Positions 22,102 to 59,994 of a stretch of 64,000 nucleotides of DNA are shown here, piece by piece. The DNA lies in assembly GCF_964275005.1 (NCBI RefSeq), contig NC_092698.1, positions 37,616,597-37,680,596 on the forward strand, written 5' to 3'. This stretch comes from Diadema setosum (lineage: Eukaryota). Every line of letters begins with the position of its first letter. The first letter of the stretch is position 1. Position numbers and translations under genes: made by a program. The notes under the pieces are model-generated. The model was not told the DNA's origin. It did no database searches and worked only from the letters and a program-made list of their open reading frames with translations.

Positions 22102-22806
22102 ATGAGTCTGTTGCAGAGCAAGTCCCGGCTCTCTAACCCACTTCTTAGTGGGAGCACATCATCGACTGCAGGCTCCTTGGGAGTAGGAGCCACCAAGCGT
22201 AAAGCTAGCAATGATGGCCACACCATGAGGTCCTCTCCAAGCAAACAGAAGCTTGGAGGGTTGACCCTCAGTTCGGGCAGCCTTCTGTTGGGGAGCTCAC
22301 TCCTTGGGCAGTCTGGGATTGGGAAGAAGGAGGAGAAAGCAGCAGCCACAGGCTTTGGTCTTCGGTCGTCTGGTCTTGGACTGAAGTCTTCACTGCTGGA
22401 GAACAAGTTACTCTCATCCCCTACCAGTCTGAGCATCCAGGGCATGCTAGCTGGGAGCTCCTCAAGGAGTACCTCAAAGTCTTCTGTACCAGACAGGAGC
22501 AGCGCCTTGTCAGCTGGTGGGGTAAAGTCCCTGCTTGGCAAACAGAAGTCCCACGGCAGACCCAGCAGCAATGAAGGCAGGGAATCCAAAGCCAAGAAGG
22601 TGAAATCCCAGCAGCCTCAGGACTACCTTGTGGAGACTGCCCTGGACAGCAGTCTCACCACCTGTGAGCTGCCGGATTATAACTTTGCCCGGGAGCTGCC
22701 CCTCGTGAAACCACATCCCCAGGAGTCTGTGGTGTCCTTTGATAAACTGGATGATGTTGGAGGAGTGCCGGTGGCTGATAGAATTGATCCACTGACAAAA
22801 TCCAAG
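22102..22806 (+). CDS. TEP1: TEP1 exon 1 (start codon). The N-terminus is 235 aa of low-complexity Ser/Leu/Gly/Lys-rich sequence.
   Basis: ATG at 22102 (ORF track 22102..22956). Strong donor AAG|GTATGT at 22807, phase 0. Possible acceptor ttttctgttttcag at ~21984 upstream, suggesting a 5'UTR exon. Confidence 0.6.
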
Positions 22807-23651
22807 GTATGTAGTTGGTTACTCATCCGAGGAAAACAATTCTCATTCAGTAAAACATTTATGACAAGTAACTCATCTTTGGCATTTATGATTGCCATAT
22901 TTTTTATTTCAGCCCAAATGCTTTCAATTTCATTGTTACTTGTAAAAGTTTCCTAGAAATTTGTTGATATTTCATTTTATTTTAATTGCCATGAAATTGA
23001 AATATTGTTAATGCCATGGAAATTGGGCTTGCCCACAGGAGTAATAAGCTGCATGAAGACCACAATGCCTAGCATGCTGACCAAGATTATGATTCCTTGT
23101 AGAAAAGTGTGTGTTAAATTGAAAATCATGTAGAGCAGTTGCAATAGTATGACTCAATATCTGCAGATCGGAAAAGTGAATTTATTAATTTCTTGAGCTG
23201 TTAAATGATGCACTGTGGTGTACTGTATGTAGGGTTTTCAGTATCCTGCCATGCCCTGCAGTTTAACCTATTCAGTCCCAAAAATCAAATTTATGTGGTT
23301 TTATAGTTGCCAACACATCTTTCATTATAATTTCTCATGATTTTTTTGTTAGTTCTTCATGAGGTTGAGTAAAATGCTTTCTTTCATTTTGAGTGCTTTG
23401 TTGTTCAGATATAATTGTTATGATTTCAGAATTTTCAAAAGTCTTTTCCTTTCTAAACTTGAAACCTTATTCTTAAGATTAGCAACACTTAAAAAAAATT
23501 GCAACACATTTTAGATGATTAGAATTCCTGTTTCTCAGTCAAATTAGTAAGTTAGGGTTTTTTTTTTCTTCTGATTTTGGTGCAGATTCAATGGATGGAA
23601 CTAGTTCCATCAAACCTTTCTCCAATATTAATGATACATAATGAAATTTAG

Positions 23652-23900
23652 AATGGCCAATTTAGTGAGGAAATAGTGATACCTTCTGCAACAAAAATTC
23701 CCTCTAGATTTGGTGACTTTAATAATGCTGAAATAAAGCATTGTATGTTCTTTTGCAATCAACAGCAACAGTTCATCAATGCTATCAGCGCCTCTCTGAT
23801 TGGTGGGCCAAATTTCCACGAGCGAGGTGATCTTACCCGGAGAGAGATCAAGAGACAGGCAGAGGCGATCATCGGACAAGATGCAGAGTTTGTCCTCAAG
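23652..23900 (+). CDS. TEP1: TEP1 exon 2.
   Basis: Acceptor tttAG at 23650-51 overlaps the in-frame TAG, so the frame opens exactly at the acceptor. Encodes ...RFGDFNNAEIKHCMFFCNQQQQFINAISASLIGGPNFHERGDLTRREIKRQAEAIIGQDAEFVLK. Donor GTAAGC at 23901. Phase 0. Confidence 0.6.
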
Positions 23901-24570
23901 GTAAGCACTGTCTGGCTGTTTGCATTGTCTGAACAGGAGAGAGTCTTTCATGCACTTGTGTGATGTTGCGTCATGTACACTACAATATTGGCTCAGCTTT
24001 GTATTACTGACATATATGGGTAAACTTGTCTTTCATTGTGTCTATCAAGATTACAAATTTATAGTGAAAAATTCAGCAAAGAAAATGGGATTCCATTTCC
24101 CGATTTTTCACTTCTAAATTATATACATATCTGGTCAATTTCCCTTTGTTTGCAAGGATTACAAATTGTTACAAATCCTAGTAGCATATTTGTCAATAAG
24201 TTTTGCTTTGTTTATTTTATATGAGAGCCATTTATTGTTTCCATTACTTTTTCCTTAGTTCAATGATCTACTTTACAGGTGTGTGTATATCAGGTTTTGC
24301 ATTTGTTTTTGAGAAAAGCTGATTCTCTTAGACTGCCAGCGTGGCACATCTGAACATCAGGTTAACTATGATAAAGTTACTGAACCTGCATATATGGTGC
24401 AGAACTCTGTCTTTATGAGAGTAAAAATGTCATGCTTAAGCAGACATACTCAACAGAAGAGAGGGAACTGAGTTGAAACCACTACAGAGTTGACACAGTG
24501 TATTTATATATTGGGCTGATTGCACTTTCGTGGCGGGTCTAATCAATGTACTTGTATCTTTCTACACAAG

Positions 24571-24732
24571 GTGGCACTGTACACACGCAAAGAGCTGAAC
24601 ATTCGCACCACGGCAAACTTCCTGCTGGCCCTGGCAGCCATGACCCCTGACTGCCGACCTTTCCTCAGGAAGTACTTCAGCTCTAGCATCAATCTGCCAT
24701 CTGATTGGATCGACGTGGCCGAGCTCTACCAG
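24571..24732 (+). CDS. TEP1: TEP1 exon 3 (TROVE core).
   Basis: Acceptor tctacacaAG|GTG; encodes VALYTRKELNIRTTANFLLALAAMTPDCRPFLRKYFSSSINLPSDWIDVAELYQ. Donor CAG|GTATGT at 24733. Anchored to ORF 24520..24765. Confidence 0.85.
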
Positions 24733-25566
24733 GTATGTGCACTCACAAAACAGGATGCACAGTGATTAGCTTGTGATGTGTCATGAGGGGAAAAAAGGTG
24801 CCTGGTTTATGAATTAACGGCATAGGTGGCTTCTTTGCATAGATCGTAAGTAGACTAGGAAGTAAGCAACCCCTTCCCCATAAATTCTAGAGAGAGTGCT
24901 GAAATAGAAAGTAGAGAGTCAAAAACAAGTGTTTGTGTACATGTAAGTAATGAAGACAGTTTGTGAAGATAAATGTTTCTTGCAGGTTTCCGTTACTTAG
25001 AATAGTCATACAAGATTTGTCAGCCTAAGTCCCTGCAGGAATTAAGTCAAAAAATGATCCACTTTGTCTACAAACCTTTTGCAGAGATTAAGGTTTTGGT
25101 AAATAACATTCAATTCTTTAATTTAAGGCTAACATAACTGGGAGTGATTAAGGGCATTTTTACGCTAAGATTCTTTAAGACCTTATAATAGAAACCAATA
25201 GCAACATGTGGACTGATGACAAGGCTGTGTGATACTTGGGACAGAATAGCTACAAAATTGTAGTTAGAATCACAATGGATTGATATGCAAGTATGAAAAT
25301 GACAATGAAGATAAAACAGACAACACTTTTCATTAAGCACTTTCTATCTTTATTTTCTCAGTGTTACCATTCTTTCTGAAGGTAACCATGTTGATGACAG
25401 ACGAGGACTGCTAGCTTATCTTTTGTCCTCCATTTTGTATAATTGAGATAAATATTAAATACATGTATAATAGTACTGTGTAGTTTCTACGTTTTCAAGC
25501 AAACCAAATTGATGTACATGTATGTGACTGTCTCATTAAAGATTAAGCTTTTTCTTTTCTATGAAG

Positions 25567-58293: not shown

Positions 58294-58429
58294 CACGGCT
58301 GCATCGTGTCTGGATCATTGAATGCTGAGGTCAAGGTGTGGACACACAGTGGAGTGGAGATCACTACCCTCCATGGTCACTCAGACAAGGTCAACAAGGT
58401 GGACATTTATGTGCCAGATTTGGACCCAG
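58294..58429 (+). CDS. TEP1: TEP1 exon 39 (WD40).
   Basis: Acceptor tttttgtatgtcctcAG at 58292-93; encodes HGCIVSGSLNAEVKVWTHSGVEITTLHGHSDKVNKVDIYVPDLDP(G); donor CCAG|GTTGGT at 58430. Ends in phase 1. Anchored to ORF 58246..58467. Confidence 0.75.
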
Positions 58430-59126
58430 GTTGGTATAGAAAGAATGATCGACCATTGTCCTCGTGATAGTGATTCCAGTAGAAATCAAAGATACTTAAT
58501 GTAAAGTTGATGCTGAAGATTCAATAGGGTGTTCTTAGCAATGAAAATGTTTAATTAGTGTCAGTTAGTCTACAGTCATTACCATGGTGTTGGAGATGGT
58601 AGCAGTGATGATGATGATTATGAAAATTAAGGTGATGATTATAAGAAGAAGCAGGAAGGATGTTTTCTCGATAAAAAAGAAAGTCGGGATACAAGGCATT
58701 TATGGTAGATAGTGTTGAAAGCAGAGTATCTATCACTATCACCAATGCTGTCTACCAGTATTAGTAATAGATGTGATGGTAACAGTAGCAGGCATGATAT
58801 TCTGTAGATTTAAATCTGATTTTAGATTTTTTGTTCTCACATCTGTACACATTTTTCTACTTTCTTGTATCAAAATCACTTGAAAATTGTGATTTCTGAC
58901 TTCTTCTTTTTTTTCAAAAACCTTAGTATCATTCTTCAGTAGGTGATGTATGCAGTGTACATCAGTACTGAATTCAGTCTCTAAACTTGCCTGGAGATAA
59001 ATCTTCCTTGTGTTATCCTTTCCAAGTAAAAATTGATCCAGAAAGAGTGTCTGTGTGCAGACAACTTTTTGATGCTTATTTAAATCCAGAATTTGAACTG
59101 TGTTTCTTTGGTCATTTCATTTGCAG

Positions 59127-59329
59127 ATGACAAGGAGATCAACTTTGATGAGGATTACACTCCCAAGGAGACGGGAGGAGTTGAGTGGGCGGCCATCATG
59201 GCGGAGGAGGACTGGAAGGAGAGGCACGAGAAGAAGAAACTGGACAAGGTGTCAAAGGTCAAACTGGAGGATGTGATTGTAGCCTCGGCCAGTGAAGACG
59301 GGACCACCCAGCTTTGGAAGCCCCTCCAG
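59127..59329 (+). CDS. TEP1: TEP1 exon 40 (WD40). This is the last exon I can place with confidence.
   Basis: Acceptor tcatttcatttgcAG at 59125-26; encodes (D)DKEINFDEDYTPKETGGVEWAAIMAEEDWKERHEKKKLDKVSKVKLEDVIVASASEDGTTQLWKPLQ; donor CAG|GTAAGG at 59330. Phase 0. Anchored to ORF 59093..59410. Confidence 0.8.
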
Positions 59330-59907
59330 GTAAGGAGGTTTTTCAAAGGAGGTTTTCTCAACCTTTCTCCACCATGGTGGTATCAGTTACTGTATACACC
59401 ATATATTTAGTGAGGTTTTAACTTTTGCCTATTTTGTGAGTTTGGTGCTGTGTGCAGATTTAACATCACACAAAAATATCAATTTTGATCCTGACATGTA
59501 TGCGATGTGCGTGATTCATTTACTGTACTGTAATTGTTGGAAAGTTACAATTTGCGAAAAATTAGACTCACCAAATATAATGCATATACTGCATAACGTG
59601 TAACTAGTAGTCATGTGTGTTTCTGTCCTCCCTAGTTTCATTGGCCAATTTCATTTGAAAAGTTACACTAGAATTTCAGAGTAAACTGAATTGTTATCGA
59701 CTGTACAAGCGTACATCTGACCAGGCTTGCCAGGCCTTGTTTAATACACAATTAGCTCTTCAGTATAATTGATTTCAATTTCACAATTAGAAGTTAGTCC
59801 TTATGATATGGGATCAACAATATGAGTGGCATACCACTGTGCATAAATTGACTGAAAAGATTCTGATTTTTTTATTTGACAGCATTTATTTTTTGGTTAT
59901 CCTTCAG

Positions 59908-59994
59908 TGCCATTTGACAAATGATACAAATATTTTGGATGCCTTGAAGGAGAGGAGCAAGCACCCTATAGAACACACCCTTTTTCCTGAATAG
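59908..59994 (+). CDS. TEP1: Candidate terminal TEP1 exon (or pseudo-exon) ending in TAG.
   Basis: Strong acceptor tttattttttggttatccttcAG at 59906-07 in phase 0; encodes CHLTNDTNILDALKERSKHPIEHTLFPE*. It has no recognisable similarity to the human TEP1 C-terminus. The competing in-phase acceptor tcctccctAG|TTT near 59638 gives only FHWPISFEKLH*. Confidence 0.25.
   Translation, partial: CHLTNDTNILDALKERSKHPIEHTLFPE

Follow-up and report, generated by a model that had tools for sequence, protein, structure and literature searches.

The 64,000-nucleotide stretch of the Diadema setosum genome analysed here (NCBI RefSeq assembly GCF_964275005.1, contig NC_092698.1, positions 37,616,597 to 37,680,596; hereafter the window, with positions counted from its first letter) almost certainly carries, on its forward strand from 22102 to the window end, exons 1-41 of an echinoderm orthologue of TEP1 (telomerase protein component 1, a vault-associated protein of the TROVE/NLR-like type), for which ~48 coding exons are expected. 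The encoded protein begins with a low-complexity N-terminal region, followed by a TROVE plus vWA-like module, a DUF4062/TIR-like domain, a NACHT domain, a winged-helix region, an APAF1-like helical domain and WD40 propellers. A preliminary description of this DNA had proposed an invertebrate TEP1 with the order TROVE, DLRWGV block (the DUF4062 region), NACHT and WD40, and this proposal agrees with the Pfam profiles, the human TIR-like domain structure (PDB 11gz), collinear protein alignment, intron positions, exon-only DNA conservation and the ratio of nonsynonymous to synonymous substitution rates (dN/dS). The gene is an ordinary, intact member of a known family, truncated by the window edge.

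The exon chain was rebuilt on the forward strand independently of the coordinates in the preliminary description. When the spliced DUF4062-NACHT core served as query in a word-indexed search for homologues, it retrieved named TEP1 fragments of shark, acorn worm and amphioxus, which match the window collinearly, one exon after another. All proteins returned by this search were shorter than 700 residues, with no full-length TEP1 among them, and many were bacterial; they were used for exon anchoring only. Coding segments were chosen by a codon-usage score trained on the TEP1-fragment matches, which gave about 40 forward-strand segments between 22.1 and 59.4 kb of this AT-rich window (GC 0.33-0.45), and all frame-compatible GT/GC..AG pairs between adjacent segments were enumerated and scored. 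The start codon is the first ATG downstream of an in-frame stop. The resulting model (22102-59329) comprises 40 exons with GT-AG introns and consistent phases throughout, amounting to 6777 nt or 2259 codons with zero stops. Thus, the 40 phase-consistent exons of the preliminary description are confirmed; its codon total was 2261. With exon 41 added (see below), the coding sequence reaches 6843 nt over 41 exons, with neither a stop nor a frameshift and with canonical splice sites everywhere.

Two places in the chain required a choice between candidates. A direct splice from exon 13 to exon 15 (38163 to 39196) has zero frame-compatible sites. Exon 14, which was located by reading the sequence, is the sole exon restoring the phase between them, and an apparent tblastn alignment through 39086-39170, which contains two stop codons, was dropped in its favour. 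At exon 16, the acceptor at 40236 was favoured by a crude acceptor score but rejected for 40203, which retains residues aligned in all homologues.

A full-length comparison set came from an exhaustive search seeded with an amphioxus fragment (P0089), which yielded many proteins of 2200-2950 residues. The best match was XP_063952437.1, the TEP1-like isoform X2 of the sea urchin Lytechinus pictus (2542 residues), in a single high-scoring segment pair (HSP; E = 0, 69.7% identity) spanning residues 8-2259 of the model and 2-2238 of the subject. The largest gap in this alignment measures 12 residues and falls inside a Lys/Glu-rich insert, and zero gaps occur at exon borders. Because the model aligns to a 2542-residue orthologue in one HSP, its reading frame is not a product of chance. 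Single HSPs of ~1900-2300 columns were obtained to TEP1 or TEP1-like proteins of sea urchin, crinoid, scallop, amphioxus, priapulid, lamprey and opossum. The identities were 47-41% for the TEP1-like proteins of crinoid, amphioxus, scallop and priapulid, and 37-32% for the TEP1 proteins of lamprey, caecilian, lizard and opossum (32% over 1996 columns in the last).

The gene structure was compared by mapping the annotated L. pictus protein back onto its genomic DNA (locus L001), where it occupies 48 coding exons. Thirty-nine of the 41 exon boundaries lie at most one residue from those of Lytechinus, and many exons have equal lengths in both species (78, 183, 177, 93, 282, 96, 99, 108 and 66 nt). 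Of the two exceptions, one reflects a 15-nt indel in a variable loop at the end of exon 39, after which exon 40 starts with ATGAC in equal phase in both species; the other, at the 3' end of exon 41, is an end-of-alignment effect where the pairwise alignment runs out. At the DNA level, blastn between the two loci gave 35 HSPs, of which 33 fall on exons and the remaining 2 on a short interspersed repeat; the introns themselves were unalignable.

This ~70-nt repeat (43043-43111, intron 19) matches L001 at 4327-4397 and 19580-19644 on opposite strands with 78-80% identity, and it is the only non-exonic DNA similarity found between the two loci. In addition, window exon 19 (matching interval 42753-42943) matches three adjacent places in L001 (24511-24701, 24748-24874 and 24933-25047), which suggests partial tandem duplicates of the Walker A exon within a Lytechinus intron.

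The 3' end of the gene was examined against the same orthologues. Exon 40 ends at a strong phase-0 donor exactly where all orthologues continue: Lytechinus X2 runs on for 304 residues over 7 further exons (about 7 WD blades), and every orthologue has 220-410 residues more than the model. The gene is therefore expected to run off the window, with exons 42-48 (about 304 codons) downstream of 64000, so that, judged from the closest orthologue, about 12% of the coding sequence would be missing at the 3' end. By arithmetic rather than by count, the ~603-residue WD region plus the 304 missing residues would make about 21 blades of ~43 residues, in agreement with the 21 repeats that the preliminary description quoted for human TEP1. 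That description had called the gene complete-looking, which overstates the case, as 7 exons of the closest orthologue are absent from the window; its suggestion that the gene probably continues beyond the window is borne out by the open phase-0 donor, and its other suggestion, a WD region shortened in this lineage, finds no support in orthologues that extend past exon 40.

It is very improbable that the gene truly ends near 59329-60195, with a shortened WD region and exon 40 or 41 as the terminal exon. This reading could draw on the last 3.8 kb of the window, where no further exon was detected: the orthologue's C-terminal 304 residues had no match anywhere in the window (tblastn, E ≤ 10), and a search for exons 42-48 in 59330-64000 (open segments and tblastn, E ≤ 10) found nothing past exon 41 and no WD-like open segment after 59329. 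Moreover, read-through of exon 40 would add 26 codons before reaching the stop at 59408-59410. However, such an end would fall on a strong donor at which the alignment to every orthologue continues, and exon 41 also closes on a donor (GAT|gtgagt) with the frame open. As for the empty 3.8 kb, intron 41 is long because of three repeat insertions (60510-61145, 62239-62517 and 63261-63546); it exceeds 3.8 kb here, as compared with 1.56 kb in Lytechinus.

Exon 41 itself was recognised through the Lytechinus isoforms. Isoform X1 (XP_063952436.1, 2565 residues) differs from X2 only by a 23-residue insert directly after ...LWKPLQ. When this insert peptide alone was searched against the whole window, it matched exon 41, VSNWASLVGENKENAGFRGNSD, with 12/14 identity (E = 3e-5), and the exon equals Lytechinus exon 41 in both size and position. 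Thus, the statement in the preliminary description that no convincing exon follows 59329 does not hold. Both genes carry a 66-nt optional exon after ...LWKPLQ. It is a reasonable possibility, if somewhat short of an even chance, that in echinoid TEP1 exon 41 is a conserved, alternatively spliced linker of 22-23 residues where the last WD40 propeller begins, maintained across a divergence that saturates synonymous sites.

The selection acting on the gene was estimated against Lytechinus by the Nei-Gojobori method. Over 2245 codon pairs, dN/dS was 0.106 (0.06-0.16 by domain), values that are approximate since the synonymous sites are saturated (pS 0.70). There is little probability that the gene is a processed-out or decaying TEP1 pseudogene. 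Its introns do hold a CAG array of 126 perfect copies, along with several repeat insertions of young age, but 6843 nt of coding sequence over 41 exons show no stop, frameshift or non-canonical splice site, dN/dS is about 0.1 in every domain, the catalytic and nucleotide-binding motifs are intact, and the retained introns speak against a retrocopy. Judged from its sequence, the gene is a working one under purifying selection, neither a pseudogene nor a false merger of two genes.

The domain content was examined with Pfam profiles. TROVE (PF05731) scored 368.6 bits (cut-off 23, E = 7e-110) at residues 236-642, covering profile positions 21-442 of 442, and WD40 (PF00400) scored 221.7 bits (cut-off 27). 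With the WD region removed, five further domains were recovered: the vWA-like DUF5920 after TROVE (PF19334, 33.1 bits, cut-off 27, residues ~774-844), DUF4062 (PF13271, 62.3 bits, cut-off 24.7), NACHT (PF05729, 37.1 bits, cut-off 26.7), the APAF1_C helical domain (41.6 bits, cut-off 22.8) and the winged helix HTH_NWD1, at 26.4 bits slightly below its cut-off of 27. The TROVE, NACHT and WD40 profiles, which the preliminary description had proposed as a check, therefore all score above their cut-offs. The TEP1-specific second propeller (Beta-prop_TEP1_2nd, PF25047) reached 231.1 bits (cut-off 89) at residues 1951-2183 (profile 1-223 of 255). A match to PF25048 as the C-terminal propeller was discounted, as it falls on an internal blade (1832-1871). 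The domain-to-exon assignments made earlier are accurate to within one exon; TROVE, placed there in exons 2-10, covers exons 2-9 by Pfam.

The motifs named in the preliminary description (FISSTFRDMHGERDLL/DLRWGV in exon 15, GKHGCGKT in exon 19, VIFIDG in exon 21 and ESPFNNQ in exon 22) were all found at those places in forward-strand open segments, and Walker A (GKHGCGKT) and Walker B (VIFIDG..D) are intact. Vertebrate TEP1 (human Q99973, represented in our comparison by opossum XP_056665943.1 and PDB 11gz) has the TROVE / vWA-like / TIR-like NAD(P)+-hydrolase (NADase) / NACHT / helical / WD40 architecture in common with this gene, and the FISSTFRDMHGERDLL block is identical between the vertebrate representatives and the Diadema protein, whereas overall identity is only about 32%. 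Walker A reads GKHGCGKT here and G[EG]P[GS][QE]GKT in the tetrapod representatives. The ESPFNNQ motif had been described as identical to vertebrate TEP1; it is present, but its exact form was found only in invertebrate orthologues among those compared (sea urchin, crinoid, amphioxus and horseshoe crab), while the vertebrate representatives, human not among them, have EE[TS][PA]FNNQ (EETPFNNQ, for example) or ESHSNNQ.

Several other proteins share parts of this architecture. Ro60 has the TROVE module without the NLR-like part; NWD1/NWD2 have DUF4062-NACHT-helical-WD40 and APAF1 has NACHT/NB-ARC-helical-WD40, in each case without TROVE; and NPHP3 is a STAND-type protein that shares a single module and lacks the combination of TROVE with an NLR-like part. 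It is this combination, together with the TEP1-specific propeller, that places the gene in TEP1. Although the DUF4062-NACHT core alone matches many non-TEP1 proteins, bacterial ones included, at 30-38% identity, a different NLR-like gene of the NWD1/NWD2/TTC41/NPHP3 type, or a Ro60-like TROVE gene wrongly joined to an NLR-like gene, is the least credible of the alternatives, given that phase-consistent exons 13-15, with boundaries conserved in the annotated Lytechinus gene, link TROVE to the NLR-like part, that both parts fall within one HSP in alignments to named TEP1 proteins of ten phyla or classes, and that the second-propeller model exceeds its cut-off. Accordingly, the unrelated NACHT-WD gene that the preliminary description had named as its refuting outcome did not emerge, as TROVE is present and the TEP1-specific propeller passes its cut-off.

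The TIR-like domain was aligned with the human structure. Two 2026 preprints report that DUF4062 is a TIR-like NADase domain and that NAD(P)+ hydrolysis by human TEP1 within vaults depends on E1008; they also report that the R908A and R976A substitutions lower this activity (bioRxiv 10.64898/2026.05.01.722283; 10.64898/2026.09.04.749371). PDB 11gz_A (Telomerase protein component 1, in which chain residue i is human TEP1 residue 893+i) matches residues 877-1089 of the model over 213 residues (E = 3e-60). E988 aligns with the catalytic human E1008, a Glu that is invariant in 11/11 aligned TEP1 proteins, and human R908 and R976 are both conserved, as R887 and R955. Human R954 corresponds to Ser933, and Ser is found in Lytechinus too.

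By analogy with mammalian TEP1 and sea urchin vaults, the following function may be proposed. Sea urchin vaults exist, and a TEP1 homologue in the S. purpuratus genome was noted in 2005 (PMC550661). Binding of vault RNA, residence in vaults and hydrolysis of NAD(P)+ are established biochemically for human TEP1, whereas for the vaults of sea urchins they are no more than suggested (PMC550661). Inside the MVP vault shell, the TROVE/vWA module would serve to bind and tether the small vault RNA, and the TIR-like domain would hydrolyse NAD(P)+ to ADP-ribose and nicotinamide via the conserved E988. As in other proteins of the STAND/NLR-like kind, the NACHT, helical and WD40 parts may form a scaffold for regulated oligomerisation and sensing; exon 41 would probably add an optional in-frame linker of 22 residues at the start of the last propeller, and that propeller (7 exons, about 7 WD blades) would lie beyond the window. 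If exon 41 is indeed a conserved, alternatively spliced linker, then together with the conserved catalytic Glu and the Ser at the human R954 position it would point to a TEP1 NADase in echinoderm vaults whose propeller junction is regulated by splicing and whose active-site loop differs slightly.

Several points weigh against the reading of this gene as TEP1, in addition to the saturated synonymous sites mentioned above. The stop codon and the last propeller fall outside the 64-kb window. We infer the splice junctions and the use of the cassette exon from conservation, and the Ser at the human R954 position could change the catalytic efficiency. A tblastx comparison gave no sign in the window of the MKLP1-type kinesin that is the upstream neighbour of the Lytechinus gene; Rfam revealed neither a vault RNA nor a Y RNA nor a telomerase RNA in the window, and ARAGORN reported nothing relevant. 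Finally, the N-terminal 235 residues match no Pfam-A family at E ≤ 0.01 and are only 46% identical even to Lytechinus. Vertebrate TEP1 has short N-terminal repeats, which are probably not a defining feature outside vertebrates; repeats of this type were not found here among Pfam-A families at the same threshold.

Overlapping exon 1 on the opposite strand is a 217-residue open reading frame (ORF; 21942-22595, minus strand), which most likely reflects the Ser/Leu/Gly-rich composition of this region rather than a gene.

RefSeq already holds TEP1-like models for sea urchin, crinoid, scallop, clam, priapulid, horseshoe crab and amphioxus, and the usefulness that the preliminary description expected of a new curated invertebrate model is correspondingly weak. 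Beyond annotation, the gene has little importance and opens no long-standing question. It does offer a clean, selection-tested example of conservation among echinoids, which extends to the recently described NADase catalytic residue, the NACHT motifs and nearly all of the intron-exon structure. This gene and its Lytechinus counterpart (X1 and X2) have a common domain order and differ in their saturated synonymous sites, unalignable introns, small indels in low-complexity loops and length of intron 41; exons 42-48 are not within the window here. Mild novelty lies in two features only: the optional exon 41, which is conserved, and the Ser that takes the place of Arg in the active-site loop of the NADase.

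Table 1 Coding exons and last intron of the Diadema setosum TEP1 gene in the window.
Feature	Position	Strand	Remarks
Exon 1	22102..22806	+	705 nt; start codon and 235-residue Ser/Leu/Gly-rich N-terminal region; model residue 8 aligns with Lytechinus residue 2
Exon 2	23766..23900	+	TROVE begins
Exon 3	24571..24732	+	TROVE; 96% amino acid identity to Lytechinus
Exon 4	25567..25663	+	TROVE
Exon 5	26378..26633	+	TROVE and Lys/Glu/Asp-rich low-complexity insert; 12-residue length difference from Lytechinus
Exon 6	27448..27605	+	TROVE
Exon 7	28564..28764	+	TROVE
Exon 8	30573..30684	+	TROVE (basic linker)
Exon 9	31212..31392	+	Pfam TROVE match ends (residue 642, about nt 31311); vWA-like part begins
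Exon 10	33894..34046	+	vWA-like region
Exon 11	35793..35870	+	78 nt, size equal to Lytechinus
Exon 12	37187..37332	+	DUF5920 (vWA-like)
Exon 13	38010..38163	+	DUF5920 (vWA-like)
Exon 14	38680..38762	+	83 nt; linker between vWA-like and TIR-like parts; acceptor ctctctcag|ATA, donor GCG|gtaaga; boundary conserved in Lytechinus
Exon 15	39196..39372	+	DUF4062/TIR-like NADase domain; FISSTFRDMHGERDLL, DLRWGV; R887 (human R908)
Exon 16	40204..40446	+	TIR-like; R955 (human R976), catalytic Glu E988 (human E1008, SITELEM)
Exon 17	41139..41252	+	TIR-like domain
Exon 18	41776..41896	+	End of region matching PDB 11gz (human TEP1 895-1113)
Exon 19	42756..42938	+	NACHT Walker A GKHGCGKT (residues 1143-1150)
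Exon 20	43856..44031	+	NACHT
Exon 21	44577..44730	+	NACHT Walker B KLVIFIDGINNMD
Exon 22	45123..45299	+	NACHT C-terminal part, ESPFNNQ
Exon 23	45706..45798	+	93 nt, size equal to Lytechinus
Exon 24	46335..46467	+	Winged-helix region (HTH_NWD1, below cut-off)
Exon 25	47245..47425	+	Winged-helix region
Exon 26	48190..48299	+	Helical region
Exon 27	48841..49043	+	APAF1_C-like helical domain
Exon 28	49670..49951	+	APAF1_C-like helical domain; 282 nt, size equal to Lytechinus
Exon 29	50451..50546	+	First WD40 blade
Exon 30	51508..51632	+	WD40
Exon 31	52071..52326	+	WD40
Exon 32	52856..52975	+	WD40
Exon 33	53836..53934	+	WD40
Exon 34	54349..54612	+	WD40; TEP1 second propeller begins (PF25047 match from residue 1951)
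Exon 35	55225..55400	+	TEP1 second propeller; most divergent exon, 37% identity to Lytechinus, ungapped
Exon 36	56184..56286	+	TEP1 second propeller
Exon 37	56828..56950	+	TEP1 second propeller
Exon 38	57952..58059	+	TEP1 second propeller
Exon 39	58294..58429	+	WD40; variable loop at end, 15 nt shorter than Lytechinus
Exon 40	59127..59329	+	Charged loop and WD blade ending ...TTQLWKPLQ; donor CTCCAG|gtaagg, phase 0, no stop
Exon 41	60130..60195	+	66-nt phase-0/0 cassette VSNWASLVGENKENAGFRGNSD; acceptor ttcaag|GTC, donor GAT|gtgagt
Intron 41	60196..64000	+	Runs past window edge; at least 3 interspersed-repeat insertions

Several repeats lie within the introns of the gene and around it. An interspersed element of ~640 nt is present in two copies of inverted orientation, one in intron 11 (36394-37029) and one in intron 41 (60510-61145). 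Their identity of 94-98% suggests a transposable element that was active recently; an ORF beside the second copy (61113-61625) matches no protein family. A dispersed repeat family of ~300 nt, in direct orientation and with 78-89% identity, occurs at 30136-30415, 62239-62517 and 63261-63546 and partially at 13056-13164, and its two copies in intron 41 help to explain the excess length of this intron over that of Lytechinus. Another dispersed repeat has inverted copies of 93% identity upstream of the gene (12333-12514) and in intron 10 (35208-35389).

Intron 37 contains a (CAG)n microsatellite (57075-57451) of 125.7 copies with 100% matches. An uninterrupted array of such length is unusual, and its length is probably polymorphic or subject to errors of assembly. 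The long polyQ, polyS, polyA and polyL 'ORFs' on both strands of this interval are artefacts of the array.

Upstream of the gene, a tRNA match on the forward strand (15739-15811; Rfam 32.4 bits against a gathering score of 29), which was not called by ARAGORN, probably represents a degenerate tRNA gene or a repeat of tRNA origin. Six other ORFs in the window had no Pfam match. Two minus-strand ORFs (3532-3834 and 4379-4762), likewise with no Pfam match, are coding-like, acidic and Ser-rich, and may represent exons of a neighbouring gene on the upstream side.

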